64,000 bases of DNA from a virus (IMGVR_UViG_3300028327_000833:34516-98515); one strand, 5' to 3'. Positions 13,401 through 57,481 are shown, counted from the first letter of the stretch. The notes: generated from the letters alone by a model not told the origin. Program-made: numbers and translations.

Positions 13401-13413
13401 GGATACTAAGAAA

Positions 13414-15222: not shown

Positions 15223-15241
15223 CACTAAAGAGGAGGAGTAT

Positions 15242-21836: not shown

Positions 21837-22228
21837 TGACTGCGGAAGACGAGCTTTTCGTTAATGAGTTTATGGAAAAAGTCCGTGAGAAGTTCGAGAC
21901 GACCAAGCGATATATCGTCGAGTTCACCAAGCATTGCAGGGAAGAGGGGCCGCTGAGTTTGCGCGGGCTGGCGGACGCTCGATTTCCAGAAATCGAAAAG
22001 GACTGCAGGCTCCTATACGACGGTTTAGAGTTAGTCGTCGACGGTACGGACAACGAACTGATCGAAGGGTGGTTTGACGACGTGTCGCTTCTTACGGATA
22101 ATTGGGTGGAGGCGGCTTACGTCGGACTGGTTAAACGCGGAATCCTCTACATTAACGACGGACTCCGCCCTGAAACTGTAAAGAAATTGCTCGACAGCGG
22201 TTTCGACTTCAACCGAAAGATACTATAG
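21837..22228 (+). CDS. hypothetical protein (130 aa)
   Basis: RBS AAGGAGA before ATG 21837. Confidence 0.4.
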
Positions 22229-22321
22229 CCTTTCGCGCACACGGGGTTCGATTTAGTGTCTTAAACGCTATTCATACGTAATCAAATTTAATCTTTTTGA
22301 CATCGATAAGGAGGGCGGGAT

Positions 22322-22525
22322 ATGCGGATAACATCGCCGGCATGCCCGTGCGGAGGCGGATACGAGTGCAAAGACGGAAGCATAACTTGCAAAGTCTGCG
22401 GAAAACCCATACACTCGGAATTCGACGACAAAGAGGAGATTTCAGGTCTGGATCAAAACCGTCTCGATCACGGTCTTCTTCCGCAGGGTTCGATTCAGCG
22501 TCTTAAATCCTATTCGAACGTGTAG
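22322..22525 (+). CDS. small Zn-ribbon protein (67 aa)
   Basis: CPCGGGYECKDGSITCKVCG. Confidence 0.35.
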   Translation: MRITSPACPCGGGYECKDGSITCKVCGKPIHSEFDDKEEISGLDQNRLDHGLLPQGSIQRLKSYSNV

Positions 22526-22601
22526 AGGCCGTATAGTCGGAACGGAGACAAGAACTGTCTTTGCAACAAGAACGATTCATCTTAAACCTTGGGAGGCAAC
22601 T

Positions 22602-22955
22602 ATGCTAGCTGCACAAGACGCGAGAGATTTAGAGCAAGCGTCGTCAGTGTGCTTGAAGTGGGCGGCTTTTTGCGCGTCAATAAGAACCGAGTTCGACGAT
22701 GTGCTGGAGCGTCTTGTCAAGAGAGCCGCAGAACGCGGCAACCGTGAGATATGCTTGACAAAGCTCTGCACCGCGTTTATCAAACGTTTCGGAAAATACG
22801 CCGGAAAGGAAAGTTTAGCCCGGTATCGAGCGGCTTCGACTGAATTTCAAGTTCAATGCATAAAGCGGCTTATCGGATATGACGGACTCCTGGTGTTAGG
22901 ATATACCTTGCGTCAAGACAAAGACGGCATGTTTTTATCATGGAGAAGATACTGA
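22602..22955 (+). CDS. hypothetical protein (117 aa)
   Basis: ORF. Confidence 0.4.
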   Translation: MLAAQDARDLEQASSVCLKWAAFCASIRTEFDDVLERLVKRAAERGNREICLTKLCTAFIKRFGKYAGKESLARYRAASTEFQVQCIKRLIGYDGLLVLGYTLRQDKDGMFLSWRRY

Positions 22956-23015
22956 AGAGGGTGCGGAATACCTCGTCCGCGACGCGTCGTACTTCAAATA
23001 CAAGGAGACTGAAAC

Positions 23016-23549
23016 ATGCCGGCCAAGAACAAACGCGGCCGCCCTGAAAAAGGCGTTGTAATGCGCATAGGGTGCTATAAGCGGGAGAAAGAAGCGACAG
23101 TGACCCGTCCTGAGTCTAAGAATTACGAGAAAGACTCTTTCGTGATGGATCGCCGTCTTACGGGTTTGCTCGGACGTACGCATTGGCGGCCTATGTCCAA
23201 GCGGTGGGATTACATCGTGAACGGCAACAAGGTCAGGCTCGCCGACTTGATTATGGAAACGCCTAAAGGCAAGCGCGTGCATTATATCGACGGCAACCCT
23301 AAGAATCTGTGCAAACGGAACTTGGCGTTGGTCGACCACGGCGAGCTTATGCACTTATGGAAGCGGAAACCTAACGTTACCGGGTATCGCGGAGTTTATG
23401 AATCCGGTTGCAAGTTCAGAGCGGAGATAAAGTACAACCGCAAGAACGTTTATTTGGGGACTTTTCCGACCAAGATACTGGCCGCGCAGGCCTACAACCG
23501 GGCGGCTCGAAAGTATTACGGAAGGCTCGCGGTTTTGAACAAGTTTTAA
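23016..23549 (+). CDS. HNH endonuclease with C-terminal AP2 DNA-binding domain (homing-endonuclease-like)
   Basis: HNH: HYIDGNPKNLCKRNLALVDH; AP2: YRGVYESGCKFRAEIKYNRKNVYLGTFPTKILAAQAYNRAARKYYG. Confidence 0.7.
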   Translation: MPAKNKRGRPEKGVVMRIGCYKREKEATVTRPESKNYEKDSFVMDRRLTGLLGRTHWRPMSKRWDYIVNGNKVRLADLIMETPKGKRVHYIDGNPKNLCKRNLALVDHGELMHLWKRKPNVTGYRGVYESGCKFRAEIKYNRKNVYLGTFPTKILAAQAYNRAARKYYGRLAVLNKF

Positions 23550-23606
23550 TTTAATCCAGGTGCGGCGGTATGCCTGAGAGGGGCGGCGGCGTTGAAAAAA
23601 TCGAAT

Positions 23607-24491
23607 ATGTCCGTTAGCGAAGACAAGAGTCTGGCGCTCTATTTCAAGGAGATAGGGGGCATTCAGCCGCTCACCTCCGAGCGCGAGGCGGAACTGGCCG
23701 CCAAAATCAAGCGCGGCGACCGTAAAGCCGTGCACGCGCTTGTAAAGGCCAACTTGCGCTTCGCGGTCAGCGTGGCCCGCAACTATCAGAATCAGGGGCT
23801 TTCCCTTAGCGATCTGATAAACGAAGGGAATATAGGGCTCGTCAAGGCGGCCGAACGGTTCGACGGAACGAAGAACTTCCGCTTCATTTCCTACGCCGTA
23901 TGGTGGATCAGGCAGACCATTCTGCAGGCGCTGGCGGATCATTCGCGGGGTATGCGTCTGCCGCTTAACCGCGTCGGGGCGATACATAAGATAAATAAGG
24001 CGCAAATCGACCTTGAACAACGTCTCAACCGTATGCCCGACACCGCCGAACTCGCCCGCGAACTGTCGATGACGGAGACCGGCGTCGCGGACGCGTTGGC
24101 GATGGCGGACAGCTGCAGTTCGCTCGACGCGCCTATGGCCGACGGCGGCTCCCCGCATATAAGCGGACTGGCGGACATATCGGCCGTCAACGGGCCGGAC
24201 GAGATACAGGCGAAATCCACGCACGAAGAACTCGAACGGATACTTGAGTGCCTGTCCGACCGCGAGCGGGAAGTCGTCAAAATGTCGTACGGCGTAGACT
24301 GCGACGCGGGTTACACTTTGGAAGAGATAGGGCGTAAATTGAAACTTACGCGGGAGCGGGTGCGGCAGATAAAAGACAAGGCGATGCGTCAGTTAAGGAG
24401 CTCTCAGGGCGTGGATCAGCCGGTGCGCAAGCGGAGGCCTAAAGCGGGTTCGCGCGACAGATCGTGCAATGCGTCGAAAGGCAAGGTCTGA
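23607..24491 (+). CDS. RNA polymerase sigma factor, sigma-70 family
   Basis: region 2 FRFISYAVWWIRQTI; region 4.2 HTH TLEEIGRKLKLTRERVRQIKDKAMRQLR. Confidence 0.8.
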   Translation: MSVSEDKSLALYFKEIGGIQPLTSEREAELAAKIKRGDRKAVHALVKANLRFAVSVARNYQNQGLSLSDLINEGNIGLVKAAERFDGTKNFRFISYAVWWIRQTILQALADHSRGMRLPLNRVGAIHKINKAQIDLEQRLNRMPDTAELARELSMTETGVADALAMADSCSSLDAPMADGGSPHISGLADISAVNGPDEIQAKSTHEELERILECLSDREREVVKMSYGVDCDAGYTLEEIGRKLKLTRERVRQIKDKAMRQLRSSQGVDQPVRKRRPKAGSRDRSCNASKGKV

Positions 24492-24493
24492 CG

Positions 24494-26206
24494 ATGGCCG
24501 TCAAATACCCTATATCCCGAATCGAGACGGTTTTCCGCCGGCTTATGCGGCACGTCCGCGGTATGCGCGAAACGGGCGAACCCGTCTTATCGGTCGCCGA
24601 GGTTGACCGCCTCGTCGGCAAAATTCGTAAAATTTCGCCAGGGCACCCGTCGCTTGAAATCTGTCCGTGGGGTTGGCGCGTCGGCCCGACCTATGAACAC
24701 CCTGAATTATGCGGACAGGTCATTCCTCGCATTCCGGCGGTTTACCGCAGCGCTTCCGAACTTCCAAAACCCGTGGAAGGAGATTCGCTGATTATAACGC
24801 CGAAATTCGAGGGAGTCTCTGTCGTCTGCCACTACCGTAAAGGTATATTGTTGCAATGTTCCGCGCAAATGGACGGGCGGTGCGGGTGGGACGTCACGAA
24901 TAACGTGATTTCACGCATACCGCTTGTAATTCGCCCGTATTCGCAGCGCAGAGAGCGGTTTACTGGATATATTCAGTGCGTCGCCACCGTCAACGCGAAA
25001 GAGTTTTTCAGGAAATTTCCGAAAGTAACCGCTTATGTCACCGACAACCCGCTCAAAGAAACTATCAGCAACCTACTGTGGGCTAAAACGGATGTTCCGC
25101 GAAGCTCGTGCTATATAAAGATTATCCCTGTGAATATCTATCACAGCGGCGAGGGGCAATTCGTGCGCGTCGGAAGCATGGGATGGCGCGGCTATACGCA
25201 AGATTTTAAGGATCAGTTGCAATACCGAAAGGTTGAGTTCAGTTCCAGGTGCGACCTCGGGCTGACGGAACGCACTGCGTCGGAGCTGGCAGGGCCGCAC
25301 CCGCACAACGGGCTTGTGGCGCGGATGTATAATGAAGACCTTGTGTTTAAAAAGATATTTGTATATAAACTGAAAGGGGATGTTATGTCTCATCAGACTA
25401 CGGTCGTAGAAACTAAATGGTTTACCTCCGACAGCGGCAGACTGGATCCTATGATCTTCTGTACGCCTGTTGACGTTGACGGTCGGTTTGTAGAATCAGT
25501 CTGGGGGCAGTCGCATCAATTCATTGCCGCAAACAAAATAAGCGCTGGAGCGAAACTAGAAATAGTTCGAAAACCGGGAGGACAGGTGGTTGTTCAAAAC
25601 GTCGCGCGCGGCGCGAACCCGTTCAATCCTAACGTGCGTTGCCAGTTCGGGTGCGACCCTGAATTTATCGAGATTGATACGGTTCACGCATACTGCCGCA
25701 ATCCGAGATGTCCGGGTACAACGTTAAACATGCTCGACAAACTGTGCTACATCTTCGCGCCGCAATTTTTCAATAAAGAAACGCGGCGGAAGATATTGGA
25801 TTATTTTCATAACAACATTTTCGAGTTTATTGACTTTTACAAAAACATGGAAGATTTAAGCGGTTTCTCAGCCAAAATCGACGGCGTGAAAGGGTTAGAC
25901 CACTACAGTTGGATAAAGTACGGACGCATGCTGGAGCGGGTATTGAAGTGGGAACTGACGCTCCCGCAGCTTTGCTACCTTGCCGGCATTGAATCTATGG
26001 GCGGGACTCAGGCGGATTTGATAAGCCGCAGGGCGTCATCCGACAAAGAGCTTACCGAGTGGGCTAAGGAAACTTCCGCGCTTCCGAGAGACTGGGGGAT
26101 CAAGCCGAGGGCGTCGGAGAATTGGGCCCGGCGGCATTACATGGTTAAAGAAATACTGAAATCTTTCAAACTGAGAAAGGACGGAAAAAGTGGTAAAGTT
26201 GCTTGA
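24494..26206 (+). CDS. divergent NAD-dependent DNA ligase (LigA)-like protein, no BRCT
   Basis: adenylation motif ITPKFEGVSVVCHYRKG (KxDG-like); LigA-type Zn finger CQFGCDPEFIEIDTVHAYCRNPRCPG. Confidence 0.55.
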   Translation: MAVKYPISRIETVFRRLMRHVRGMRETGEPVLSVAEVDRLVGKIRKISPGHPSLEICPWGWRVGPTYEHPELCGQVIPRIPAVYRSASELPKPVEGDSLIITPKFEGVSVVCHYRKGILLQCSAQMDGRCGWDVTNNVISRIPLVIRPYSQRRERFTGYIQCVATVNAKEFFRKFPKVTAYVTDNPLKETISNLLWAKTDVPRSSCYIKIIPVNIYHSGEGQFVRVGSMGWRGYTQDFKDQLQYRKVEFSSRCDLGLTERTASELAGPHPHNGLVARMYNEDLVFKKIFVYKLKGDVMSHQTTVVETKWFTSDSGRLDPMIFCTPVDVDGRFVESVWGQSHQFIAANKISAGAKLEIVRKPGGQVVVQNVARGANPFNPNVRCQFGCDPEFIEIDTVHAYCRNPRCPGTTLNMLDKLCYIFAPQFFNKETRRKILDYFHNNIFEFIDFYKNMEDLSGFSAKIDGVKGLDHYSWIKYGRMLERVLKWELTLPQLCYLAGIESMGGTQADLISRRASSDKELTEWAKETSALPRDWGIKPRASENWARRHYMVKEILKSFKLRKDGKSGKVA

Positions 26207-26396
26207 AGTTGAAAAGCATTATATCTTGGCTAAGATTCCCGACAATGAATTGGAGCTTGTGACATTTAAAAACGGTAAGACAGGATACGTCCGCTATACT
26301 TTTGTCAAGACGACTCCTGCAATTCTAAAGGAGATCGAAAACGGTTCGGATAAATATAGAACTCACCACAGGTCTACGGAAAGGAGCAAAAACTAA

Positions 26397-27239
26397 ATGG
26401 CTTTCAACGAGATGAGCACTCTGGAAAATTTATACGACCCGCGAAAAGAAAAGCGGCGGTTAAGGATAAGTCCGTCCGTAATTTGCAATTTGAAGTGCCC
26501 GTATTGCAACACCGCGCCGTGGATCAATAAGGGATGCAACGTCCCGATTTGGCCAGTAAATATTATTGAATTTTGCAAAATATACCGCCCGACTGAGATA
26601 ATCCTGTGCGGAACTGGTGAGACTGTCTTATGTCCTAATTTTTTAGACCTCTGGAAAGCGGTAAATAGCGTCGAATCGGTCACAAACATACGGCTGATCA
26701 GCAATATTATAGCCCGTCCAAAGCAGTGGTGGGATGCGTGTATTTTATCACGCAATCCTGCAATAGATGTCGGAATAATAGGGTCGGTGCATTTAGACCA
26801 GGGCAACATAGGCGCCGTCAAAGCGTTAATGCACGATTATGCGACCATCCGTAAAAAGACGGTCAACTCGGAGAATTTTTTGCATCTCGATAAAAAATTA
26901 CAAATATCAGCAAATATTTTAATCAGCTGCGGCTCCTCGGTTATTCTGAAAACCGAATATCAAAAAGACCCGGTTTGGTTTACCGAGCCGAATGTGTCGT
27001 TTTTTTGGGACTGTTTTATCGCCGAAACAGAAAAGAGTGAAATTATGCGGGAATTAGGCGTTTTATCCAGTATCCTGAATATTAGCCAACTACGCAGAGC
27101 TGACGATGCTAGTCTTAACTGCGAGTTTGATGCCGACTCTGTGGCGATAGCCTTAACCGACAAAAAAAATCTCTTAGTCATTAAAATCGATGCAGACTTA
27201 AAACAGTATTTGCTGTGTGACATAGTAAACAGGCCGTAA
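26397..27239 (+). CDS. radical SAM protein (small, single-cluster type)
   Basis: CNLKCPYC (Cx3Cx2C), CGTGETVL. Confidence 0.65.
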   Translation: MAFNEMSTLENLYDPRKEKRRLRISPSVICNLKCPYCNTAPWINKGCNVPIWPVNIIEFCKIYRPTEIILCGTGETVLCPNFLDLWKAVNSVESVTNIRLISNIIARPKQWWDACILSRNPAIDVGIIGSVHLDQGNIGAVKALMHDYATIRKKTVNSENFLHLDKKLQISANILISCGSSVILKTEYQKDPVWFTEPNVSFFWDCFIAETEKSEIMRELGVLSSILNISQLRRADDASLNCEFDADSVAIALTDKKNLLVIKIDADLKQYLLCDIVNRP

Positions 27240-27277
27240 ACTAAATCTGAATATTACTTGAAAAAGGAAATGCAGAT

Positions 27278-28093
27278 ATGCCGAATGAACAACCTATATG
27301 GGAAGCTGACAAAGTCGCGGTCTTCTCGCCGCATCACACTTGCAATTTCAAGTGCCCATACTGTATATCCGCGACGCAGACCGAGGCGAAGCCCGACTCG
27401 CGGGTATACGATAGCTCTATATGGATCGATTTAGTCCAAAATAACTGGATGATCGAAATTTCAGGCGGCGAGCCTCTATTATCGCCGCAAACTATCATGT
27501 TCGCCAACAAATTGGTCGCAATGGGCGGCAGAGTCCTGATTCTGACGAATGGCACGAATTTGCAGGAGTACGAGCGTCTGCTGTCGGACGGCGTCGGAGT
27601 CCTTGCCTGTTGGCACCCGTCACAAATACCGCTGAGGGAGTTTTATTGCGTGAGCGAGCGTAAGAACACGAAATACAAGTACATGCTGCATCCACAGTAC
27701 TTGGAGCAATGCGGGCGGTTTTGGCGGGATATGGAGCAATGGAAGTCCGCCGCAAAAAAAAACGTGCTTAACATCGGAGTGTTTGAAGGGGAAATTCAGG
27801 GAGAGTTCCTTTGCGCTGACCATCCGCGATACAGATTTTTGACAGAAGACGGACGGGACAGCTACATACGGCACCTGTTCATGCCAAGAAAGAACCTGAT
27901 AATCGAAAGTAATGGAAGCGTATACGGGAACTACTATATGGATCAGCCTATGGGCAGTGTGTTCGACTATGACATGAGGAATCTTGAAACGCTGCCGCCG
28001 AAACCATACATAGCGATCCGCAAGGATCTGAGGGATTTGGAAAAAGCGCAGATTGCGTATGCGAAGGCGATAGACAAAGTGTTTCAACCGTAA
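27278..28093 (+). CDS. radical SAM protein, paralogue of 26397-27239
   Basis: CNFKCPYC, ISGGEPLL. Confidence 0.65.
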   Translation: MPNEQPIWEADKVAVFSPHHTCNFKCPYCISATQTEAKPDSRVYDSSIWIDLVQNNWMIEISGGEPLLSPQTIMFANKLVAMGGRVLILTNGTNLQEYERLLSDGVGVLACWHPSQIPLREFYCVSERKNTKYKYMLHPQYLEQCGRFWRDMEQWKSAAKKNVLNIGVFEGEIQGEFLCADHPRYRFLTEDGRDSYIRHLFMPRKNLIIESNGSVYGNYYMDQPMGSVFDYDMRNLETLPPKPYIAIRKDLRDLEKAQIAYAKAIDKVFQP

Positions 28094-28102
28094 CCGAAAG
28101 AA

Positions 28103-28135
28103 AAATTTCGGCACCGAATAGCGTACTGTAGTAGA
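28103..28135 (+). promoter_or_regulatory. conserved intergenic motif copy 5, followed by perfect 10-bp hairpin GAGACTCCGT-GCAGAT-ACGGAGTCTC (28146-28171)
   Basis: core at 28121-28134. Confidence 0.55.
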
Positions 28136-28221
28136 AGCGTTTCGCGAGACTCCGTGCAGATACGGAGTCTCCTGATCTAACGCAATAACGAACCACAATC
28201 TATCCCTATGAGGCAACCGTT

Positions 28222-29295
28222 ATGTCACAAGTACAAGTAGATACGACGCCGCTGACCGAAGCCCAGCAAAAACGCTTAAAAAAACTTCTGAAAAAAGAGG
28301 CGCAGATAGAAGCGGAGCATAAGGAGTTGATCGAGTTGAAGTACGCCGACCCTGAGTTTTGGCGGCGGTCGCACGACCCCAAGCGATGGACGGTAACGGC
28401 TAAAGAGCGCTGGAAAAGCCGCGCCGAAAGGTGGCTGGAGGCTCCGGCGGACTATCGCCGTCAGGTGACCCGCAACGTTTCTTTGGGGGAGGTAGGAAAG
28501 AAGGCGCGAGTCAGTTGCGAAATTGTCGTGCCGTCGGTTAAAATCTACGAATACTTAAAAAGCAAAGCAAATTTACCCGAAACCGCCAGCGCGTCGAGTA
28601 AAGCCTACGAATACCCAAAAAGCGGAGCAGATTTACCTGAAATCGCCATCGCGCAGACGGTGCTGTCTATAGAGGCCGCCATAGAACGCAATTTTTTAGA
28701 TTGTAATTATACGGCGGTCTTTGCAATTCCAGAAGACCACATCAAATTCTGCATAACGCACGGATTTCTGTGGAGAGCCCCGTTTGCGAATCTCGAAGCG
28801 GCGGATTATATCTGCGGTCTCATACGCGAAGCCAACGTAGGTCATACTTTGCAAGTTGAGGAGTATATCGACGAAGCCGAGATCAAGAGCGCACGGTTGG
28901 CGGAGGCGGCAGCCGACCCTTCCCGCGCGATTAAATTCGTTAATGTGACTGTGACCGAAGAGCGCGAGTTCGTCATACCGACAGCTAAGATAAACCAATA
29001 CCTGAAAAAAATGCTGAAGTTTCCTGACGACGAAATCTCTGCGACGGTGACGGCGATCAGCAAGATAATAAAACAGGCGAACAAGAACGACGCTTCCGAC
29101 ATTCTTGTCATACCTTGGGTGTTGATTAAGGGTTGCTTAATGGGGAAAACTGGGCGCACGGATTACCAGTCGCAGCTGCTTATAGACGCCCTCTATTCTT
29201 TCTTCAAAGACGCCAACTACGGCAAGGTGTCTGCGAATGAAGGCGAAATCGTAGACGATTACGAGTTGCCGAGGCCGGTATTTAATACTTTATAG
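28222..29295 (+). CDS. hypothetical protein (357 aa) with internal 60-bp imperfect tandem repeat (28537-28656)
   Basis: KIYEYLKSKANLPETASAS / KAYEYPKSGADLPEIAIAQ; C-terminal codons and stop supplied by IS left end. Confidence 0.45.
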   Translation: MSQVQVDTTPLTEAQQKRLKKLLKKEAQIEAEHKELIELKYADPEFWRRSHDPKRWTVTAKERWKSRAERWLEAPADYRRQVTRNVSLGEVGKKARVSCEIVVPSVKIYEYLKSKANLPETASASSKAYEYPKSGADLPEIAIAQTVLSIEAAIERNFLDCNYTAVFAIPEDHIKFCITHGFLWRAPFANLEAADYICGLIREANVGHTLQVEEYIDEAEIKSARLAEAAADPSRAIKFVNVTVTEEREFVIPTAKINQYLKKMLKFPDDEISATVTAISKIIKQANKNDASDILVIPWVLIKGCLMGKTGRTDYQSQLLIDALYSFFKDANYGKVSANEGEIVDDYELPRPVFNTL

Positions 29296-29346
29296 GTTTT
29301 ATTATCAAATATTGTTTTTTGTTATCAAATGTGTTATCTTTGAGTT

Positions 29347-29904
29347 ATGAAACTATCTAATTATGCTAAAAATCTCGGAATCTCTTATTTGACCGCGTAC
29401 AGGCACTACAAAGCAAATAAGATTAAAGGCGCTTATCAGCTAGAGTCTGGGACAGTAATTGTTCCAGACTTAAATTCCGTAAGTAAACCTGACTATACTG
29501 TTATTTACAGCAGAGTCAGTTCGTCTGAAAATAAAAGCAACCTGGAGAGCCAGGCAGAGAGGCTTATGCAATTCTGTAATGCAAAAGGGTGGGTTGTTAA
29601 AGAAGTTATAAAAGAATGCGCATCAAGGTTAAACGATAACCGCCCTAAATTATTGAAGTTATTTAAGGAGAGGCGGGCAACTAGACTCGTGGTGGAGCAT
29701 AAAGACCGCCTAACCAGGTTTGGATTTAATTACATAAAAGAACTTTATAACGAGTGTGAAATTGTAATTTTAAATGAAGCTGAAAATCGAAATGATTTAA
29801 TGCAAGACTTTGTTTCGTTAGTAACCTCTTTTTGCGCTATGTTATATGGACAACGAAGGACAAAACGACAGACAGAAAAGTTAATCAAGGAACTTGAAAA
29901 ATGA
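29347..29904 (+). CDS. tnpA: IS607-family TnpA, serine recombinase with N-terminal MerR-like HTH
   Basis: catalytic serine motif VIYSRVSSSENKSNLESQ; 185 aa. Confidence 0.8.
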   Translation: MKLSNYAKNLGISYLTAYRHYKANKIKGAYQLESGTVIVPDLNSVSKPDYTVIYSRVSSSENKSNLESQAERLMQFCNAKGWVVKEVIKECASRLNDNRPKLLKLFKERRATRLVVEHKDRLTRFGFNYIKELYNECEIVILNEAENRNDLMQDFVSLVTSFCAMLYGQRRTKRQTEKLIKELEK

Positions 29905-31040
29905 AGTTCAACAGAAGCGTCAAATGCCACTTCTCGAAGTGGATAACCGGAAGCAAGTCCGGCCGTATAAAAGACTTGCTTTCTGAGTATGACGCCGTAG
30001 CGACTTCGGCTATAGACGGTATAAAAAACCGCATAGAAGACGGCGACTCTAAGTTCGACGTCTTTAAAAATTACAAAGTACCGGAAACGTGGCTGACGGC
30101 CAGAGCGAAACAAGTCGTTTTAGCCGAAACCTACGGCGTGGTAGACGGCCAGATTAAAAGTTGCAAAGAGTTAAAACAGCCGTATACGAAACCTAAACAC
30201 TGCAAAACAAAAGCCGTTTTGTCGAGTCAGCTGGTATCTGTAAACCTTAACCCTGATTTAGAAGACTTTGATCTTCTAGTAGAGTTAAAATGTTTCGACA
30301 GCAGAAGGAAAGCGGTTAAAATAGCGATACCCTTGAAAAAGAACCGTTGTTTTGAAAAATGGAACACTAAAGGCAAACTTTCAAGTTCCGTTATTTTAAC
30401 GGATAAATATATCCAGTTTTCGTTTGAGGCTGATGTCCCTAAGAAAACGGAAGGTGGCATTCTAGGCTTAGACCCCGGAGCCACGAATCTTTTAACATCA
30501 GACGAGGGCGTTGTTTACGGCGACCGTATAAAGCCGCTTTTACAGAAACTTAAACGTAAAAAACGCAACTCAAGGTCGTGGAAAAAATGTAAAAAAGAGA
30601 TTAAATATTACATTTCTAAAACATGTAAAGAGTTGCCTTTTAAAGAAACTAAATTAATCTGTATTGAAAATAACAAGGATATTAAAAGAAACAGCAAAGT
30701 TAAAGGACGCTTAACTAAAAATATGCGTTCAGTTCTCGACGGCTGGACAAGCGGGTTGCTGGACAGCAGGGTAGAAATGCTCTCAGAGGAAAACGGTGTT
30801 TCCCTCAGACGAGTGCCTGCTTTCCACAACTCCACTACTTGTCCGGTCTGCGGTCACGTCGAGAAGGGGAACCGGTTAAGTCAAGAGGCGTTCAGGTGTC
30901 TGTCTTGTGGCTATGCAGACAAAGCCGATATGGTCGGCGCTTTAAACGTCCTTGGCCGCTTCTCCCTCGGAAAATATGGTTCCGGGTTCAAAACCGAGTT
31001 TGTTAAAAAACATGCAGGTTATTACGCCTGCAAGATTTGA
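29901..31040 (+). CDS. tnpB: TnpB, 379 aa
   Basis: GLDPGATN, LICIENN, CPVCGH..CLSCGY, ADKADMVGALN. Confidence 0.85.
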   Translation: MKFNRSVKCHFSKWITGSKSGRIKDLLSEYDAVATSAIDGIKNRIEDGDSKFDVFKNYKVPETWLTARAKQVVLAETYGVVDGQIKSCKELKQPYTKPKHCKTKAVLSSQLVSVNLNPDLEDFDLLVELKCFDSRRKAVKIAIPLKKNRCFEKWNTKGKLSSSVILTDKYIQFSFEADVPKKTEGGILGLDPGATNLLTSDEGVVYGDRIKPLLQKLKRKKRNSRSWKKCKKEIKYYISKTCKELPFKETKLICIENNKDIKRNSKVKGRLTKNMRSVLDGWTSGLLDSRVEMLSEENGVSLRRVPAFHNSTTCPVCGHVEKGNRLSQEAFRCLSCGYADKADMVGALNVLGRFSLGKYGSGFKTEFVKKHAGYYACKI

Positions 31041-31057
31041 TAATAAAAGAGGTAACT

Positions 31058-31498
31058 ATGTACATAATGCTGTCGATTCATCCGCAGTACGCCGAAAAAA
31101 TTCTCGACGGGACGAAGCTGTGGGAATACCGCAAAACCTTGCCGACAACGCATCTCCTCGACGTAACGGGAGTTGTGGTGTACGCCACAGCGCCCGTGTC
31201 GAGAATTGTCGGCGAGTTCGAAACGGATTTGACGAAGACGCGTACGGCGTCCCCGTGCAAGCTGTGGCATGAAACGGACGGCGAACGAGACGGAGGCATC
31301 ACCAAAGAAGCCTTCGACAAATATTTCGAGGGGCACGACTACGGGTACGCGATCCCGGTCTTGCTGTATTCGGGCGGAAGTTCCGCCGTAAGATACGACG
31401 TCCCTCGGAGGCTCGCGGATTTCGGATTGAAAAAGCCGCCGCAAGGGTTCGCATATTTGAAGAAATATAACGGCTTAAAAACAATAGGCGCGGAATAA
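31058..31498 (+). CDS. ASCH/PUA-like domain protein; start ATG and RBS supplied by IS right end
   Basis: MLSIHPQYAEKILDGTKLWEYRKT resembles the ASCH N-terminus. Confidence 0.45.
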   Translation: MYIMLSIHPQYAEKILDGTKLWEYRKTLPTTHLLDVTGVVVYATAPVSRIVGEFETDLTKTRTASPCKLWHETDGERDGGITKEAFDKYFEGHDYGYAIPVLLYSGGSSAVRYDVPRRLADFGLKKPPQGFAYLKKYNGLKTIGAE

Positions 31499-32475: not shown

Positions 32476-32640
32476 GTGATTGAAGAGCTGAGCAAAAGTT
32501 GTCCGAATCACGTGAAGAACGAAATTAACGCGACGTTTGCCAAGAACGTAGTGAATCCTGACTTTACGGATAACTGCAACAAGCTGGCGAAACAAGCGGC
32601 AGGCAGAGTCAAACAACCTAAAGGCGAAGGACGGCTATGA
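32476..32640 (+). CDS. small hypothetical protein (GTG start)
   Basis: GGGGGA RBS; overlaps pncB start by ATGA. Confidence 0.3.
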   Translation: MIEELSKSCPNHVKNEINATFAKNVVNPDFTDNCNKLAKQAAGRVKQPKGEGRL

Positions 32641-33845
32641 TTATCACATCGCTGTTAGACTGCGATCTGTACAAATTTAGCATGGGAGCCGCGTATTTTG
32701 ACGGGTTTGCCAATACTACTGCGCGGTTTGTGTTCAAAGACCGTACTAATAAAATCCCAGTTACCGAGTTATTTATCGAAAGGCTCGGGCGCGAGGTCGA
32801 TTCGTTATGCAAGTTGAAATTCAGTACCGAAGAGTTAGATTATCTTTTCGGACTTAGATTTATGAAAGATAAGGTCGGGTATAGGGAATATTTGCGGAAC
32901 TTCCGACTCAATCCCGATTGGATTCATATTTACGGAGTAAATGACGGCGGCAAACTTGCGGCGGTAGAGATTCATACAGCAGAAGCCCCGCTGATAGCCG
33001 TCAGTATGTTTGAAATTTATATCCTTGCAATCGTGAACGAGTTGTATTGCCAGGATAACAACGTGTACCCTCCTCGGTATGAGCGCCAACTTGCGGAGGA
33101 CACTGCGAAGCGGTTTGATGCGCTCGAATGCCCTTTCATCGAAATGGGTACGCGAAGGCGAATATCGGGAAGTTTTCAAGATAAACTAATTGGCGAGTTA
33201 AAAAAGAATTCTAAATTTCTGGGGACAAGCAATGTTTATCTTGCGATGAAGCACGGCGTAACCCCAAGCGGGACGCAAGCTCACGAGTATTTGTGTACCG
33301 GGCAAGGACTTCCTCATGTGCCCGTAGCCGACAGTCAGCGGTATATGTTCGATTTCTGGGCGCGACACTTCAACGGGGACTTGGGCATAGCCTTGTCGGA
33401 TAATCTAGGCACGGACAAGTTTTTGGAAGACTTCACTTGCTACTATGCCAAACTGTTCGACGGTGTCAGACATGACTCAGGTGACCCGTTCGTATGGGGC
33501 GAGCAGATGATTAAAATGTACGAGGGTTACGGGATCGACCCGAAATCCAAAAAATTGGTATTCAGCGACAGTCTATCTCTGGAAAAGGCCAACGCTATCT
33601 ACCGCAAATTTAAGGATAGAGTCAAAGTTGTAGCTGGAATCGGGACGGCGTTGACGAATCCGATCAAGGATAAGGCGACCAATATCGTGATGAAGATGGT
33701 CAGTTGCAACGGGCGGCCTGTGGCTAAGTTATCAAACAACCCAGGCAAACAAATGTGCGAGAATGCCGATTATGTGCGTTATTTGAAACAGGTGGTTAAG
33801 TTCAATGACAGCTACGAACTGTCCGAAGAGGATGGCTGGGAATAA
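32637..33845 (+). CDS. pncB: nicotinate phosphoribosyltransferase (PncB)
   Basis: blocks GTRRRISGSF, GTSNVYLAMKHGVTPSGTQAHE, LGIALSD, GVRHDSGDPFVWGE, LVFSDSL, GIGTALTN, NIVMKMVSCNGRPVAKLSNNPGK align to E. coli PncB. Confidence 0.85.
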   Translation: MIITSLLDCDLYKFSMGAAYFDGFANTTARFVFKDRTNKIPVTELFIERLGREVDSLCKLKFSTEELDYLFGLRFMKDKVGYREYLRNFRLNPDWIHIYGVNDGGKLAAVEIHTAEAPLIAVSMFEIYILAIVNELYCQDNNVYPPRYERQLAEDTAKRFDALECPFIEMGTRRRISGSFQDKLIGELKKNSKFLGTSNVYLAMKHGVTPSGTQAHEYLCTGQGLPHVPVADSQRYMFDFWARHFNGDLGIALSDNLGTDKFLEDFTCYYAKLFDGVRHDSGDPFVWGEQMIKMYEGYGIDPKSKKLVFSDSLSLEKANAIYRKFKDRVKVVAGIGTALTNPIKDKATNIVMKMVSCNGRPVAKLSNNPGKQMCENADYVRYLKQVVKFNDSYELSEEDGWE

Positions 33846-33947
33846 ACTTTTAACCTTCTAAGGAGGGCGTTATGAGTGAACATAAGAAGCCTGGCGAGGT
33901 TCTTACTGAAGCCGAGGCGGGTTTTATCAGCGCAACGGAGGGAAAAA

Positions 33948-34835
33948 ATGTATACTTACAAGTTTGATGTAGAGAAAGTGACGAAAGATTGCGTCGCGTG
34001 GATAAAAAGATGGTTTGCCGAGAATGGCGGCGAGAGACCTGCCGCGATTGTCGGCGTCAGTGGAGGCAAGGACAGCGCGGTCGTCGCGGCATTGTGCGCC
34101 GAAGCTCTCGGCAAGGACAACGTTATAGCGGTGCTGATGCCGAACGGCGAGCAAAAGGACATTGCGGATTCCTGGAAAATTATATATCACATAGGTTTGA
34201 AGAGAATTATCCTCTCTAACATCAGCGACACTGTCAATGGGCTATTCGCTAATTGCGGTGTTGTTGAAGATTGTGTTAAGTACAACCTAAACCAACGGTT
34301 TTGGTATCCAGAAACAGCAAGCATTGCTTGGAACAATCAAGCCGCGGTAAACGCACCTGCGCGGATTCGGATGGCTACGCTGTACGCGATGGCGGCTCAA
34401 TACGGCGGTCGGGTGGCGAACACCTGCAACCGCAGCGAGGATGTGTGCGGGTACGCGACCCTCTACGGCGATTCGGCTGGCGACTTCAGTCCGCTGTCCA
34501 AGCTAACTGTGACGGAAGTCATCGCAATCGGCGAATACTTGGGTTTGCCACAAGAGATTACTCGTAAGACTCCGAGCGACGGCCTGTGCGGGAAGTCGGA
34601 TGAGGAATCTTTGGGCATGAAGTACGCCGAACTCGATGAGTGGCTCCGCGAAAGTAAGCGCGAGAGTACTATCGGCATCAAAGTCTGGGATATGTGGATG
34701 AGCCGCGGAAGGTTCAAACTATCTCTGATAAATCTACCGTCTTTCGACCCCGACCTTTATGACAGGATAGAAGATGTGGATTATGAGCGCAATCAACCAA
34801 GAGGCGAAGTAAGACTCATAAAGAGTATGCCTTGA
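33948..34835 (+). CDS. nadE: NH3-dependent NAD+ synthetase (NadE)
   Basis: PP-loop VGVSGGKDSAV; RBS ACGGAGGG before ATG 33948. Confidence 0.85.
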   Translation: MYTYKFDVEKVTKDCVAWIKRWFAENGGERPAAIVGVSGGKDSAVVAALCAEALGKDNVIAVLMPNGEQKDIADSWKIIYHIGLKRIILSNISDTVNGLFANCGVVEDCVKYNLNQRFWYPETASIAWNNQAAVNAPARIRMATLYAMAAQYGGRVANTCNRSEDVCGYATLYGDSAGDFSPLSKLTVTEVIAIGEYLGLPQEITRKTPSDGLCGKSDEESLGMKYAELDEWLRESKRESTIGIKVWDMWMSRGRFKLSLINLPSFDPDLYDRIEDVDYERNQPRGEVRLIKSMP

Positions 34836-35388
34836 TATGCCTGAATACTATTGCAATAAGCTGGCGGAGCAGGCGGCGAGCAGGATTAAGCCGGAAAAGT
34901 CGACGGCGAGGAATTACCGTGCTCTTGCGTAGTTAAGGGGTACGATAACGCTATCATAATCAAGTGGTAATACCGGAGGTGTAGAATGGAATGGAACCTT
35001 ACGCTCGACGGCGGTCAGTTGAATTTCCTGCACGATCTTGTAGCGGAGTACATGAAACAAGCGGAAAAACCGTCTTTAGCGAGCGTCTACCCGACAGGCA
35101 TCGCGCTTGAAGTCTATGACGCATTACAGGGAGCGTTGCCTAAAGAAAGGACGGCATAATGTCGGAAGAGCGCACCGTCTATCGCTGTCTGCACGAAACG
35201 GCGGGTCAGAACCAATGCCCTACCCTCGGCATGGCTAAAAACGACATCTATTGCAGATACGCCTGTTACGTCTGCAAAGACGAAGTCGCCGTGGATAAAA
35301 AATTCAAATGTCCGTTGGAAGCTAAATGAGCTATACGCTACGTTGATACTGTTTATAAACGAAGCTTTATGCGACGAGGAGGATATAG

Positions 35389-36504
35389 ATGCTGAATAGA
35401 GACCTTTCAGTTGTCATAGGACGGTTTCAGCCGTTGACGTCTGGACACACTGCGCTTATCAACGAAGCCCTTGACAGCCACTCCGACCTGCTCGTGATAG
35501 TCGGCGGGGCGAATGTCAGCCGAAGCATCAAGAATCCGTTTACGGCGTCCGAGCGAGTCGATATGCTCCGCAACTACTTTCAAGGCGGCTATCTGTCCGA
35601 GCGGAAATATGCTAATCCGATTATGGTTACTATAGCCTGTGTCGACGACTCAGATTACGACTCCGAATGGTGGGAGATTGCCGTAAGGGAATGCGTGTCG
35701 AAAGTCGCAGACGGACGCCGCGTTACCCACTACGGGCACAAGCGGGACGCTTCCTCATATTACATGGGCGATGCGCTCGTAGGAATCGCTGAGTATAAAG
35801 AGATTGAAGCCCTCGCGAAGAACATCAGCGCGACGAAAGTACGCAAAGCGTTATTTGAATGCGATGACGGAACTGTGAAAATTTATACGCCTTCTTGCGT
35901 ATCCTCGTTTTTGCGCGAATTCGTGGAATCGCGAGAGTACACTCATTTGACTGCGCAATATACGCGGATTCAGGAATACAAGGAAAAATGGAAATCCGCG
36001 CCGTACCCTCCAACCTTCGTAACAGTGGACGCTACAGTGTTCTGGTGCAAGACACTCGGCGATCACGACGGATGCCAAACGGAGACTCGAGTCTTGCTGA
36101 TTAGGCGACGGGACAACGGCTTATGGGCTGTCCCCGGCGGCTTCCTTAACCCTGACGAGCCGCTTAATAAAGCTGTGTGCAGAGAGTTATTCGAAGAGAC
36201 TAGAATCGATCTTGACGCAAAAAACGCCAACGTGTGTAGCGTTTTCGACGATCCTGACAGGGACTTGCGCGGACGTATTATAACCTACAACTACGCGTGG
36301 GTTTTCAACGGTCGTTGGTTAGCGGATCCAATCGCCTCAGATGACGCAATACAAGCGAAGTGGGTTCCGCTGGAATGGGTACGTCAAAATCCGACGCAAT
36401 TTTACGCCGACCACTTTAAAATGCTGAACGTTATGGCGCAAAAAGCGGGGGTGCTGGAACCGAGAGTACCTTGCGTTCTGATGCAAGAAATTAATCTTAA
36501 CTGA
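35389..36504 (+). CDS. bifunctional NMN/NaMN adenylyltransferase (NadM-type) with C-terminal Nudix hydrolase domain
   Basis: VVIGRFQPLTSGH (HxGH-type); Nudix box GGFLNPDEPLNKAVCRELFEETRI. Confidence 0.8.
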   Translation: MLNRDLSVVIGRFQPLTSGHTALINEALDSHSDLLVIVGGANVSRSIKNPFTASERVDMLRNYFQGGYLSERKYANPIMVTIACVDDSDYDSEWWEIAVRECVSKVADGRRVTHYGHKRDASSYYMGDALVGIAEYKEIEALAKNISATKVRKALFECDDGTVKIYTPSCVSSFLREFVESREYTHLTAQYTRIQEYKEKWKSAPYPPTFVTVDATVFWCKTLGDHDGCQTETRVLLIRRRDNGLWAVPGGFLNPDEPLNKAVCRELFEETRIDLDAKNANVCSVFDDPDRDLRGRIITYNYAWVFNGRWLADPIASDDAIQAKWVPLEWVRQNPTQFYADHFKMLNVMAQKAGVLEPRVPCVLMQEINLN

Positions 36505-36509
36505 GCGTC

Positions 36510-36540
36510 TAATTTCGGGGTCAATTTAGCGTACTATTGC
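36510..36540 (+). promoter_or_regulatory. degenerate copy of conserved motif (AATTTCGGGGTCAATTTAGCGTACT|ATTGCC), truncated at the cassette junction
   Basis: 26/30 identical to 37262-37291 up to GCGTACT, then diverges. Confidence 0.5.
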
Positions 36541-36576
36541 CACTTGCGGTTTGGTGTTACATGAAGGGCTTTCTAT

Positions 36577-37233
36577 ATGAACGATCTAAAAATGATTTGG
36601 CAAATATCGTGGTGTAGAAAACTTATTTTAATACACCTATTATATGTTTTTAATTATTTTACAGCTAGTATATTTTTTCGTACATTGATAGGACAATTTC
36701 CAAATGAATCTGTAGCATTAGATAAAATTTTCGTGCCGTCAATAATGCTATTATGCACCATATTTTTATTGTCTAATTCATTTAAGGAAAAATTTGTACA
36801 GAAAGAATATTTATTCGGCATAGCATTAATATCAATAGGATCTATAGGAATTGTTGCCGACGTTATTATATTATGCGGATATATGACATGGCATCTATAT
36901 TTGCTGCAAACAATATCAGATATAATGGGAATGATTTTCGCTTATCCTGTTTTAGAATATTTTAAAAATACGCATTTGATAAATAAGATAGTTAAAGGTG
37001 AGACAATGACTGCTTTTAATCAAATTGATAATGTATTAGGTGGAACTGTTTTAGGAATACTCGGAGGAATCGTTGCTTTGTCAATTATGAACTCGATAAA
37101 AACACCCTTAAATTTATTAATGTTTACGGCTTGGTTTGATATATTCGCTAATATTCTATATCCGTTAGCATATTGGATAACTTATAAAACGTATAAAAAT
37201 TTGAATTGTTTGAACAAGATAATCACACAGTGA
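36577..37233 (+). CDS. multi-pass membrane protein in AT-rich cassette (218 aa)
   Basis: strongly AT-rich ORF, I/L/F/N/K-rich with about 5 TM helices, against a ~50% GC background. Confidence 0.5.
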   Translation: MNDLKMIWQISWCRKLILIHLLYVFNYFTASIFFRTLIGQFPNESVALDKIFVPSIMLLCTIFLLSNSFKEKFVQKEYLFGIALISIGSIGIVADVIILCGYMTWHLYLLQTISDIMGMIFAYPVLEYFKNTHLINKIVKGETMTAFNQIDNVLGGTVLGILGGIVALSIMNSIKTPLNLLMFTAWFDIFANILYPLAYWITYKTYKNLNCLNKIITQ

Positions 37234-37261
37234 TAGGGAGACGTAAGGCTGAGCGCATAAT

Positions 37262-37291
37262 TTCAAGGTCAATTTAACGTACTGTAGTAGG
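37262..37291 (+). promoter_or_regulatory. conserved intergenic motif copy 6 (core ACGTACTGTAGTAG)
   Basis: core at 37277-37290; GGAGG RBS follows. Confidence 0.5.
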
Positions 37292-37320
37292 AGGCTGTTA
37301 TATGAACGACGGAGGTTTAA

Positions 37321-37488
37321 ATGGCGATAACGGTTAAAATGGGCGGCCTCGACTTGGCGGACTATATGCCGGAAGTGGTGGCGGATTTGGAAGCTCGAAT
37401 GGCGCAAACGGATGCAGAGTATGAACGCTTGCGCGCGCAGGGATTAAGCGAAGAGGAAGCAATTAGAACGCTCAATGAGGAGGATTAG
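37321..37488 (+). CDS. small hypothetical protein (55 aa)
   Basis: ORF after motif and RBS. Confidence 0.3.
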   Translation: MAITVKMGGLDLADYMPEVVADLEARMAQTDAEYERLRAQGLSEEEAIRTLNEED

Positions 37489-38400
37489 GTGTTTCATAGG
37501 GAAGCAGTGCCCGAGTACGGAATCTTGCTGATAATTGACGTTCAAAACGATTTTTGCGAAGGCGGAAGCATCGCCCGCAAAGGCGGACGGAAGATAGTGC
37601 CTATAATAAACGACCTGATGAAGCAGGATCGGATCCATTTGGTTGTCGCGACGCAGGACTGGCATCCGAAGAATCACATATCGTTCGCGAGCAGCCACAT
37701 GGACGGCGAACGCGTAGGGACTGAACCCTTACAGGGCGAGATCGCGCCGTTCAAGAGGGCGCTGGTGAGAAGCCCGAATACTGTGAGTTACGCGCCTGGG
37801 ACGGGCAAAGTCGATAAAATGCTGTGGCCCGACCACTGCGTAGCCGGAAGCATCGGGTCAGGGTTTTACTATCAGCAGAGCGGCGACTTATGGCTTGACT
37901 ATAAAAATATCGACCTGATTTACCGTAAAGGGACGGATTCCGAGTTGGACGCTTATGACGTTCTGTGGGACGAAATAGGACGTCCCAGTGCGTTACACTT
38001 TTTATTCGAGTCCATGATACGAAATATGGACAACGATTTGGCGTTCTACATCGTTGGAATCGCCACCGACGGTTGCGTGGCGTACACTGCCGACAGGTTG
38101 GTTCAACTCATCAGCAGCGTAAAAGAGCAGCACGAACCCAAAGTCTGTATGGAGCGCGGCTGTTTCGGAGATCCGAAGGCGTCCTTAGATAAAAAGGTAA
38201 CGGTAAAAGTCGTCTCCAACGCTTGTGTCGGGACGTCTGAAGAAGAGCACCAAAATGCGCTTGAGCGCTTGAAAACCACATCGATTGAAGTCGTCGAGCA
38301 CATCATACCATTTCCGCATAATTGCGGCAGAGCGGCAGAATTACGTAAAGACGGGCTTACTGAGGCTGAAATCACATACATAATTGAGGAGGGTAAGTAA
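37489..38400 (+). CDS. pncA: nicotinamidase PncA (paralogue 2, with C-terminal extension)
   Basis: LLIIDVQNDFCEGGSIA, VATQDWHPKNHISFAS, LWPDHCV, IVGIATDGCV align block by block to E. coli PncA; GTG start. Confidence 0.85.
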   Translation: MFHREAVPEYGILLIIDVQNDFCEGGSIARKGGRKIVPIINDLMKQDRIHLVVATQDWHPKNHISFASSHMDGERVGTEPLQGEIAPFKRALVRSPNTVSYAPGTGKVDKMLWPDHCVAGSIGSGFYYQQSGDLWLDYKNIDLIYRKGTDSELDAYDVLWDEIGRPSALHFLFESMIRNMDNDLAFYIVGIATDGCVAYTADRLVQLISSVKEQHEPKVCMERGCFGDPKASLDKKVTVKVVSNACVGTSEEEHQNALERLKTTSIEVVEHIIPFPHNCGRAAELRKDGLTEAEITYIIEEGK

Positions 38401-40354: not shown

Positions 40355-41575
40355 ATGTTAGGGTTAGATCGAATTGAAGTCAAAAAAGTGTTTATCAGCC
40401 AGCCGATGAGACGCAAGTCCGAAGCCGAGATCAAGGCTGTTCGCGAGGAAATCGTCAAATTTCTCGGCAAGAAGTTCGGGACGCAGGGTTTTACCGTCAT
40501 AGACTCATACCATCCTGAGTGGGCCGAAGAACTCAAAGCGGGCTCCGACAAGCGCGTCTTCTTCCTCGGCAAAAGCATTCAGATGCTGGCCGACGCCGAC
40601 TATGCGTTTTTCGCAGACGGCTGGAGCGAATTTGACGGGTGCTTAATTGAACATGACGTGTGCAGACTGTACAAAATTCCTAACAATATCTACCGGATTC
40701 GCGAGGATTCCGCGCGGAACTCCGCCGAAATTGACGGGGAATCGGCGGCTTCCGAAACGCCGTGCGGCGGGGCGTCCGCCGAAGACCGTGCCGACGGCGG
40801 CGAAACCGCGCGGAACGGCATTTTCACCGACACGGTGAAAATAATTCTGCAAGGCGCTAGGGACGCGGCGGTGAGGCTCGGCAACGATTATGTCGGCACG
40901 GAACACTTGCTGTTCAGTATACTCAAGCACGGCGGCAACTCCGCCGCGGAGATTTTGCAGAATCTAGACATAGAACTTAGCGCCTTGATCGATCTCGTCG
41001 TGCGCGACATACTCAGTGTCGGCCAGTCAGGGACGGAGCAGAGGTTGCCGTTTACGCCGAGATTGAAAAGGGTTTTGGAAAACGCCGCAAGGCAGGCGAG
41101 AGAGGTATCCGACAGGCACATAAGCACGCAATATCTGCTTCTCGCGCTGCTGAAAGATTCTGAGTCCCCTGCGGCTCAGTTGCTTATCAGAATGGGAGTC
41201 GATTATGTCAGCGTATTGAACGAAATCCGCCGGATTCGCGAGGATTCCGCGCGGAACTCCGCCGAAATTGACGGGGAATCGGCGGCTTCCGAAACGCCGT
41301 GCGGCGGGGCGTCCGCCGCAAACACGGCATCCGACGGCAGTACGCGGAGTGAAGAACCGATATATAAAATTCTCCGCTCTTATAACATTAACCATGAGTT
41401 AGAGCTATTCAAGCTGGCGGTTGATATAACTAACAGCACTACGGACTACCTGACAGACTACTTATGCGGTGATAAACCGTGGGAAGACCGCAATAAACTT
41501 GAAGCGAACATCATGGCGGCATACAGCCTGCTCCGCGAAACATGGGAGCGGATTAAGCAGGAGCGCGGAATATGA
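40355..41575 (+). CDS. protein with Clp N-terminal (Clp_N) repeat domain flanked by an 88-bp perfect direct repeat
   Basis: Clp_N repeats GTEHLLFSILKHGGNSAAEILQNL and STQYLLLALLKDSESPAAQLL. Confidence 0.5.
   Translation: MLGLDRIEVKKVFISQPMRRKSEAEIKAVREEIVKFLGKKFGTQGFTVIDSYHPEWAEELKAGSDKRVFFLGKSIQMLADADYAFFADGWSEFDGCLIEHDVCRLYKIPNNIYRIREDSARNSAEIDGESAASETPCGGASAEDRADGGETARNGIFTDTVKIILQGARDAAVRLGNDYVGTEHLLFSILKHGGNSAAEILQNLDIELSALIDLVVRDILSVGQSGTEQRLPFTPRLKRVLENAARQAREVSDRHISTQYLLLALLKDSESPAAQLLIRMGVDYVSVLNEIRRIREDSARNSAEIDGESAASETPCGGASAANTASDGSTRSEEPIYKILRSYNINHELELFKLAVDITNSTTDYLTDYLCGDKPWEDRNKLEANIMAAYSLLRETWERIKQERGI
40693..40780 (+). repeat. 88-bp direct repeat, copy 1 (identical to 41230-41317)
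   Basis: CCGGATTCGCGAGGATTCCGCGCGGAACTCCGCCGAAATTGACGGGGAATCGGCGGCTTCCGAAACGCCGTGCGGCGGGGCGTCCGCC. Confidence 0.85.
41230..41317 (+). repeat. 88-bp direct repeat, copy 2
   Basis: identical to 40693-40780; encodes RIREDSARNSAEIDGESAASETPCGGASA twice in one ORF. Confidence 0.85.
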
Positions 41576-47662: not shown

Positions 47663-47979
47663 TAACGCTTTTCACGCAGCCTTATCTCTCTTAGGGAGGC
47701 GCGGCGATGTGGTCTAAAATATTTTCCGTGCTTTCGGTTACAACTTGCGTTTGTTTTATGTTCGCCATTAAATACCATGCGGCTAACGCCGTTTGCGTCG
47801 GCTTAAGCATAGTAAGCACGGTCAGCAGTGCCTTGAGCCTATTATTATTATTAGGCGCGGAATGCCTCTCTAGCGATATTGACGGTGCGCCTGAACCTAA
47901 ACGCGCAAAGAGCCTGAAAAATTGCCGGATTTGTGCGCCTATACTGAAATGCTGTCGTAGCGTAACAAGGAGCCTCAAA

Positions 47980-57477: not shown

Positions 57478-57481
57478 TTTT

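Follow-up and report, generated by a model that had tools for sequence, protein, structure and literature searches.

Can a phage carry every enzyme needed to make nicotinamide adenine dinucleotide (NAD+) starting with nicotinamide, and what would it gain by doing so? The question is raised by a 64,000 nt stretch of the viral genome IMGVR_UViG_3300028327_000833 (34516-98515). This whole stretch is called the window, and all positions are given in its numbering. A preliminary description, prepared from the sequence alone, had placed four consecutive enzymes of NAD+ metabolism (PncB, NadE, a NadM-type adenylyltransferase fused to a Nudix domain, and PncA) in one gene island, and had proposed that they counteract NAD+-depleting immunity. 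Judged by its genes, the island probably does encode a complete four-step deamidating salvage of nicotinamide, with Preiss-Handler entry, which would raise or rebuild NAD+; the likeliest use would be survival of immunity that depletes NAD+.

Four NAD+ salvage enzymes in a large phage

All of the open reading frames (ORFs) in the preliminary description were found where it had placed them, on the + strand (Table 1). The PncB, NadE, NadM/Nudix and PncA calls are borne out by Pfam, by PDB matches and, for PncB and NadE, by NCBIfam. Every motif that had been cited is present: the PncB blocks, the SGGKDS and GRFQPLTSGH motifs, the Nudix box and the PncA blocks. The four genes are co-directional and closely spaced. 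The block is kept at 100% PncB identity in five of the six places listed, from eight contigs on record.

PncB lies above both curated NCBIfam cutoffs (PRK05321, 428 bits vs 379; TIGR01514, 359 bits vs 269) and aligns over its whole length with 1yir, the PncB of Pseudomonas (4.8e-71). The phosphohistidine, H216, is retained in the motif GTQAHE (residues 212-217), which stands opposite GTMAHE of 1yir; the motif is invariant in the phage PncB alignment. NadE is similarly clear (TIGR00552, 153 bits vs a cutoff of 64). It has the PP-loop SGGKDS, and NAD_synthase is its sole domain; there is no glutaminase domain. A mechanically drawn ORF begins at a GTG codon (33876-34835), but the gene callers applied to identical contigs choose the ATG at 33948.

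The adenylyltransferase belongs to phrog_395 over its full length (2.1e-50). Its residues 7-349 align with the NadM-Nudix structures of Synechocystis (2qjo, 4.5e-45) and Francisella (2qjt, 9e-42), and it contains the motifs GRFQPLTSGH and ISATKVR and a Nudix box, GFLNPDEPLNKAVCRELFEE, with REx2EE intact. PncA retains all of the invariant columns of 28 canonical PncA proteins (D17, D57/H59/H63, W113-P114-H116-C117, K147 and C196). These include the catalytic triad D17/K147/C196 and the metal site D57/H59/H116, both of which are also conserved in the PDB alignments. The protein bears two insertions and a C-terminal tail.

The element can reasonably be read as a large tailed phage, because it has replication, endolysin-like and tail-tube genes and because proteins of the window recur on other contigs of up to 204,996 bp. 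Within the window there are genes for a helicase, ThyX, DNA methyltransferases and a phage-family sigma factor (ThyX, the methyltransferases and the sigma factor being identified through PHROGs), as well as radical SAM proteins. On contigs that overlap the ends of the window, upstream genes encode an intein-containing DNA polymerase A and an anaerobic ribonucleotide reductase (NrdD), and downstream genes an M15 peptidase (endolysin-like) and a tail-tube protein; the tail-tube call is a weak Pfam Phage_TTP_2 match. No close relative is present in the GenBank phage collection searched (50,697 records): megablast with the island and tblastn with the putative structural proteins both gave zero matches there.

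Table 1. Coordinates of the features described, in window numbering
Feature	Position	Strand	Evidence or remark
VWA-like, PP2C phosphatase and Ser/Thr-kinase-like genes	11990-15222	+	VWA_CoxE (below cutoff), PP2C_2, Pkinase (below cutoff)
Second nicotinamidase-like protein, 315 aa	15242-16189	+	Distinct 'nicotinamidase-related amidase' family; fold-level evidence
LigA-like ligase	24494-26206	+	phrog_3869 5.8e-22, phrog_3359 1.8e-12
PncB, nicotinate phosphoribosyltransferase, 402 aa	32637-33845	+	Pfam NAPRTase 2.8e-61, NAPRTase_N 4.4e-22
NadE, single-domain NH3-type NAD synthetase, 295 aa	33948-34835	+	Pfam NAD_synthase 4.4e-46
Two small ORFs between nadE and nadM, 57 and 56 aa	34986-35329	+	Predicted as genes on every identical contig
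NadM-Nudix fusion, (Na)MN adenylyltransferase and ADP-ribose pyrophosphatase-type Nudix, 371 aa	35389-36504	+	CTP_transf_like 6e-10, NUDIX 2e-15
Direct repeat, left copy, 37 nt	36501-36537	+	Begins at nadM stop codon
Multi-helix membrane protein, 218 aa	36577-37233	+	In AT-rich cassette; at least four hydrophobic segments
Direct repeat, right copy, 37 nt	37249-37285	+	31/37 positions match left copy
ORF abutting pncA, 55 aa	37321-37488	+	Called on all identical contigs
PncA, nicotinamidase, 303 aa	37489-38400	+	Isochorismatase 4e-12; PDB nicotinamidases down to 1.3e-20

Predicted pathway and selective role

The logic by which four enzymes lead from nicotinamide to NAD+ had been drawn correctly, and the gene identities and catalytic residues support it. 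PncA would hydrolyse nicotinamide to nicotinate and ammonia (NH3), and PncB would make nicotinate mononucleotide (NaMN) from nicotinate with phosphoribosyl pyrophosphate (PRPP) and ATP. The NadM domain would then adenylate NaMN to nicotinate adenine dinucleotide (NaAD), which the NH3-dependent NadE would amidate to NAD+. In a fifth step, the fused Nudix domain would split ADP-ribose (ADPR) into AMP and ribose-5-phosphate, and the latter could be returned to PRPP by the host Prs.

The order of the last two steps, via NaAD or via nicotinamide mononucleotide (NMN), is ambiguous. The sequence does not settle it, because the two best PDB matches of NadE are 2e18 (107.8 bits), which we take to be the archaeal NadE of P. 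horikoshii, and 3fiu (96.8 bits), presumably the Francisella enzyme. The second of these matches would suit a different order, in which NadE is an NMN synthetase (NaMN to NMN) and NadM then converts NMN to NAD+, NaAD never being formed; the first match speaks against it. NadE is also paired here with NadM and not with NadD, and in Francisella this replacement accompanies a NadE that acts as an NMN synthetase (PMC3376133). However, the single-domain archaeal NadE that has been tested, from M. jannaschii, works as an ordinary NAD synthetase and lacks NMN synthetase activity, and NadM of Acinetobacter and of archaea accepts NaMN and pairs with a conventional NadE (PMC3376133). We consider the order via NMN unlikely and retain NaAD as the predicted intermediate.

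If the island genes are expressed together during infection, the NAD+ pool would be raised or rebuilt. The likeliest selective reason for this would be survival of NAD+-depleting host immunity, the products of which are nicotinamide and ADPR, along with support of phage replication. A role in counter-defence is plausible by analogy, and it fits the published logic of the phage NAD+ reconstitution pathways (NARPs): in NARP2, salvage enzymes which include a NadM-type Nmnat can defeat the Thoeris and DSR2 systems (10.1101/2024.02.11.579819).

The same enzymes could instead be an auxiliary metabolic gene set, supplying NAD+ for replication and for NAD-using phage enzymes in an NAD-limited host, independently of any NADase immunity. 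The NAD pathways of jumbo phages have been cast as an independent supply which complements that of the host (PMC11662467), and NARP2 raises NAD+ in cells without a defence system as well (10.1101/2024.02.11.579819). The closest bacterial relatives of the block that holds a second nicotinamidase-like gene (see below) are named Candidatus Nomurabacteria and Saccharibacteria, groups of reduced metabolism. The LigA-like ligase encoded in the window, which had been described as NAD-dependent, could be one consumer of such a supply. It does match PHROG families of NAD-dependent ligases, but its use of NAD is not established: the Pfam DNA_ligase_aden match is below the cutoff (25.2 bits vs 27), and KFEG replaces the KxDG of motif I. 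It should also be noted that entry at nicotinamide and a fused ADPR-cleaving Nudix domain fit both products of the NADase effectors. Metabolic support and counter-defence are not mutually exclusive; as an explanation standing apart from immunity, metabolic support seems to us rather doubtful.

Several observations weigh against a complete salvage route with a counter-defence role. The exact specificity of NadM-Nudix and of PncA is not assured, because both score under the NCBIfam equivalog cutoffs. The best equivalog for NadM-Nudix gives 210.7 bits vs a cutoff of 397, so that the protein has the architecture of the family without being a close equivalog. PncA gives 102 bits vs 174 (PRK11609); the match is split by the two insertions, which together with the C-terminal tail account for the low score. 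The route is dearer in ATP than Nampt plus Nmnat, and host PRPP is still required. As the genome measures at least 205 kb and the window 64 kb, further NAD genes may lie outside the window. A related phage contig (L021) has PncB (45% identity) without adjacent NadE, NadM or island-type PncA, and the set is thus not fixed in the lineage. Finally, a scan for promoters and terminators performed no better than on shuffled sequence.

Known NAD+ pathways and recurrence in other phages

The preliminary description had presented a full Preiss-Handler-type route as a solution different from the reported phage pathways. This holds with regard to the three NARPs. NARP1 consists of Adps and Namat and NARP2 of Nampt and Nmnat (10.1101/2024.02.11.579819), and NARP3 of PnuC and NadR (PMC13464706). 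All are phage-encoded routes which restore NAD+, as the island is predicted to be. In searches of the window by phmmer, with PRPS-like and NAMPT-like queries, no ORF resembling PRPS/Adps, Nampt or NadR was found; this separates the island from NARP1 and NARP3, and the membrane protein encoded within the island matches no family, PnuC included. NARP2, with the NadM-type Nmnat found in KVP40, a Vibrio phage (Osterman et al. 2024), resembles the island in part. Its starting compounds are likewise nicotinamide and PRPP, its adenylyltransferase is of the NadM-Nudix type (phrog_395), and its product is NAD+. However, it has two steps via NMN, with neither deamidation nor NadE, whereas the island has four, with PncA, PncB and NadE; the window does encode an Nmnat homologue, but the phosphoribosyltransferase beside it is PncB and not Nampt. 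The action of NARP2 against Thoeris and DSR2 has been shown experimentally; for the island such an action is proposed.

The claim does not hold with regard to computational catalogues, in which the phage route has already been entered. A 2024 study gave the name "NAD-jumbo phages" to 174 phages in which the salvage or the Preiss-Handler pathway is complete (Microbiome, PMC11662467). The pncB-nadD-nadE cluster of Kuafu_71 is given there as an example, and phage-encoded pncA is also mentioned (PMC11662467). The genes pncA, pncB, nadM and nadE have likewise been listed as viral auxiliary metabolic genes (PMC12647753). The Preiss-Handler pathway of the NAD-jumbo phages is defined by pncB, a NaMN adenylyltransferase and nadE in a jumbo phage. 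All three are found here in a cluster, on a contig of at least 205 kb, with the use of NaMN by NadM being predicted; in both cases the pathway is a computational inference. The phage studied here differs in having a NadM-Nudix fusion in place of NadD, a canonical PncA within the cluster, and a second nicotinamidase-like gene elsewhere. NadM in place of NadD beside NadE is itself established for Acinetobacter and archaea (PMC3376133). The PncA-PncB-NadM-NadE pathway of the Acinetobacter type shares with the island both the entry from nicotinamide by PncA and PncB and the combination of NadM with an amidating enzyme of the NadE family, as do the archaeal pathways in the latter respect. Those pathways are cellular housekeeping, whereas the island genes are phage-borne and clustered.

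The novelty of the enzyme set was overstated, as the set recurs in other phages. The human-gut phage scaffold MT835470.1 has contiguous genes for PncA, PncB, NadE, an AAA protein, NMNAT and Nudix. In phage LR756501.1 (735 kb) the order is PncB, NadE, a TonB-dependent receptor, a NadR-like gene and PncA. All four enzymes, with NadM and Nudix fused as here, are also encoded on three IMG/VR contigs of 198-329 kb (L083, L072 and L067), as Pfam confirmed. None of the IMG/VR and GenBank carriers of the set is a close relative of the phage studied here. PncB identity to the IMG/VR loci fetched is at most 48%, and the GC content of those loci is 28-43%. The features that make this phage a variant are the association of NadM-Nudix with PncB, the presence of two kinds of nicotinamidase, and the inserted membrane cassette.

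The TonB-dependent receptor gene of LR756501.1 (22797-24953) lies between NadE and the NadR-like gene. It hints at phage-encoded uptake of precursors.

An IMG/VR scan by phage-PncB alignment gave 437 viral stretches, and gene neighbourhoods were counted for the best 80 loci. These counts refer to contigs, some of which are duplicates, and were made with queries of low sensitivity. A PncA-like gene was found within 10 kb of PncB in 57 of the 80, NadE in 48, and both in 42. Beyond PncA and NadE, 19 loci also have an adenylyltransferase and six also have a Nudix domain. An earlier viral scan with a single PncB query had returned one locus, the PncB of which has an in-frame stop, and a PncB scan of genome contigs found no relatives. 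PncB is rare in GenBank phage records (13 of 50,697). The matches include Moraxella phage Mcat17 and Atu_ph07; in the latter, PncB forms no cluster with NadE or PncA. Two Acinetobacter "phage" records that match PncB were set aside, as the gene context is plainly bacterial (one was inspected and the second has matching coordinates). According to one survey of cultured-phage genomes, NadM is invariably accompanied by NadV (PMC9503650). The 437 viral PncB stretches, together with the finding of both PncA and NadE at roughly every second of the 80 loci, suggest that surveys of cultured-phage genomes have undercounted the deamidated route.

The frequency of co-occurrence bears on a further explanation, in which the enzymes remove immune metabolites. 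PncA would clear nicotinamide, the Nudix domain would destroy ADPR or signals derived from it, and PncB and NadE would have no more than an incidental place. For phage Nudix domains in the NadM clade, activity on ADPR derivatives has been proposed (PMC9503650), and phage enzymes which degrade ADPR-based signals are known (PMC13232231). However, the co-occurrence of PncB and NadE with PncA, in 42 of 80 viral loci, is far too frequent for an incidental presence, and in the island the active-site motifs of PncB and NadE are intact. Metabolite removal as the main function is very improbable, and NAD+ salvage is preferred.

Second nicotinamidase-like gene and other features of the window

The preliminary description had counted a second PncA paralogue in the window. 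The protein is a nicotinamidase at the level of fold; it is not a plain paralogue of the island PncA but a member of a distinct family, encoded in a block with VWA, PP2C and kinase genes. Direct sequence matches to PncA are marginal, but profile-profile comparison with the canonical PncA profile (hhalign) gives a probability of 99.3%. The AlphaFold model has a mean confidence (pLDDT) of 94.6, and its top 21 PDB matches by Foldseek are all nicotinamidases. The target-normalised template modelling (TM) scores are 0.76-0.82, except for a longer Drosophila chain (0.54). The triad and metal positions (D52, D96/H98, H164, K198 and C253) are invariant across the family, which comprises 293 homologues of about 304 aa labelled "nicotinamidase-related amidase" or "cysteine hydrolase" in the source. 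They are found in Bacteroidota, Candidatus Nomurabacteria and Saccharibacteria.

The neighbours of these homologues include NAD genes. A Sphingobacterium operon (2729-7620 of contig L015) encodes, in order, a PRPS-like protein, a NAMPT-like protein, NadE, the nicotinamidase-like protein and NrtR. On a bacterial contig, a homologue adjoins NrtR and lies near NadE and a gene of the NAPRTase family. Given the conserved residues, profile match, fold and NAD-gene neighbours, a role for the second protein in NAD metabolism is credible. The first two genes of the Sphingobacterium operon resemble the Adps/Namat or prs-nadV pairing.

The second nicotinamidase-like gene is the last of its block (11990-16189 overall). 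The block is syntenic in a bacterial contig (10001-14253 of L018, and L019; 36-58% identity) and in the related phage contig L021 (4434-10945; 39-65% identity). The whole block or parts of it lie beside PncB and NadE in five IMG/VR loci (L075, L101, L119, L122 and L125). The gene probably supplies the same chemistry as PncA within a different module.

A wider reading takes in both loci. The deamidated route would be a fourth phage NAD+ reconstitution pathway, used by jumbo phages against NADase immunity of the TIR, SIR2 or DSR type. The two products of NADase cleavage would be recycled, nicotinamide by way of PncA, PncB and NadE, with the NH3 set free being used again, and ADPR by the Nudix domain, which would yield ribose-5-phosphate. 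A separate, regulated module responding to NAD breakdown could be formed by the second nicotinamidase-like gene and its VWA, PP2C and kinase neighbours. We offer this tentatively, as possible rather than probable. Should the predicted pathway prove functional, the ways in which phages restore NAD+ would number at least four, each with its own biochemistry. Among them, the island route alone would lead via nicotinate and would thus dispense with any Nampt or NadR step. Its four genes would also make a compact cassette from which to engineer phages for use against hosts that carry NADase defences. The main value of the island is as a ready candidate for experiment as a fourth route.

The island is interrupted by an AT-rich membrane-protein cassette, as had been described. 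Nowhere in the window is GC content lower than between 36.5 and 37.3 kb (27-33%, vs about 50% in the surroundings and 51% overall). It is flanked by direct repeats, the 17-mer core of which occurs only twice in the window (0.12 occurrences expected). The position of the left copy at the nadM stop codon is as expected if the cassette had been inserted with duplication of intergenic sequence. Even at permissive thresholds, the membrane protein matches nothing in Pfam, NCBIfam, PHROG, PADLOC or PDB. A single homologue (44% identity) was found among 1.84 billion representative sequences; it is encoded on a phage-like contig of 37-43% GC which has a family B polymerase and no NAD genes. AlphaFold, run on the single sequence, gave a model too poor to use (pLDDT 52). 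The idea that the protein transports niacin or nicotinamide riboside was considered and rejected, as there was no library match and the lone homologue lies outside an NAD context. A metagenome scan for the 17-mer core gave 37 loci and no cassette-free relative. These loci look like chance matches, because none encodes a relative of the window proteins. Most likely, the cassette is an inserted, unrelated moron with no link to NAD seen. The two small ORFs between nadE and nadM and the ORF abutting pncA have no Pfam or PHROG match.

Just upstream of the island, and ahead of genes for ASCH and Band_7 proteins, there is a serine resolvase and TnpB pair resembling IS607 (29347-31040). Two further TnpB copies lie at 4667-5806 and 8025-9164, and the three copies are about 95% identical to each other. 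An ORF on the opposite strand (56482-57621) equals the TnpB copies in length, yet is unrelated to them. One contig (L001) is 99.9% identical to the window, but only from 30693 onward, a point inside the 3' end of TnpB; upstream of it there is no alignment to the 8.7 kb compared (22001-30692 of the window). This break suggests a rearrangement or an assembly join at the repeated TnpB element. The ASCH-domain protein (31037-31498) matches PDC-M11B, a component of a PADLOC phage-defence candidate (1.5e-33). Downstream of the island, the window encodes a 406-aa protein with Clp_N repeats (40355-41575), the N-terminus of which resembles nucleoside 2-deoxyribosyltransferase, and a Ro60/TROVE-vWA protein (47707-49560).

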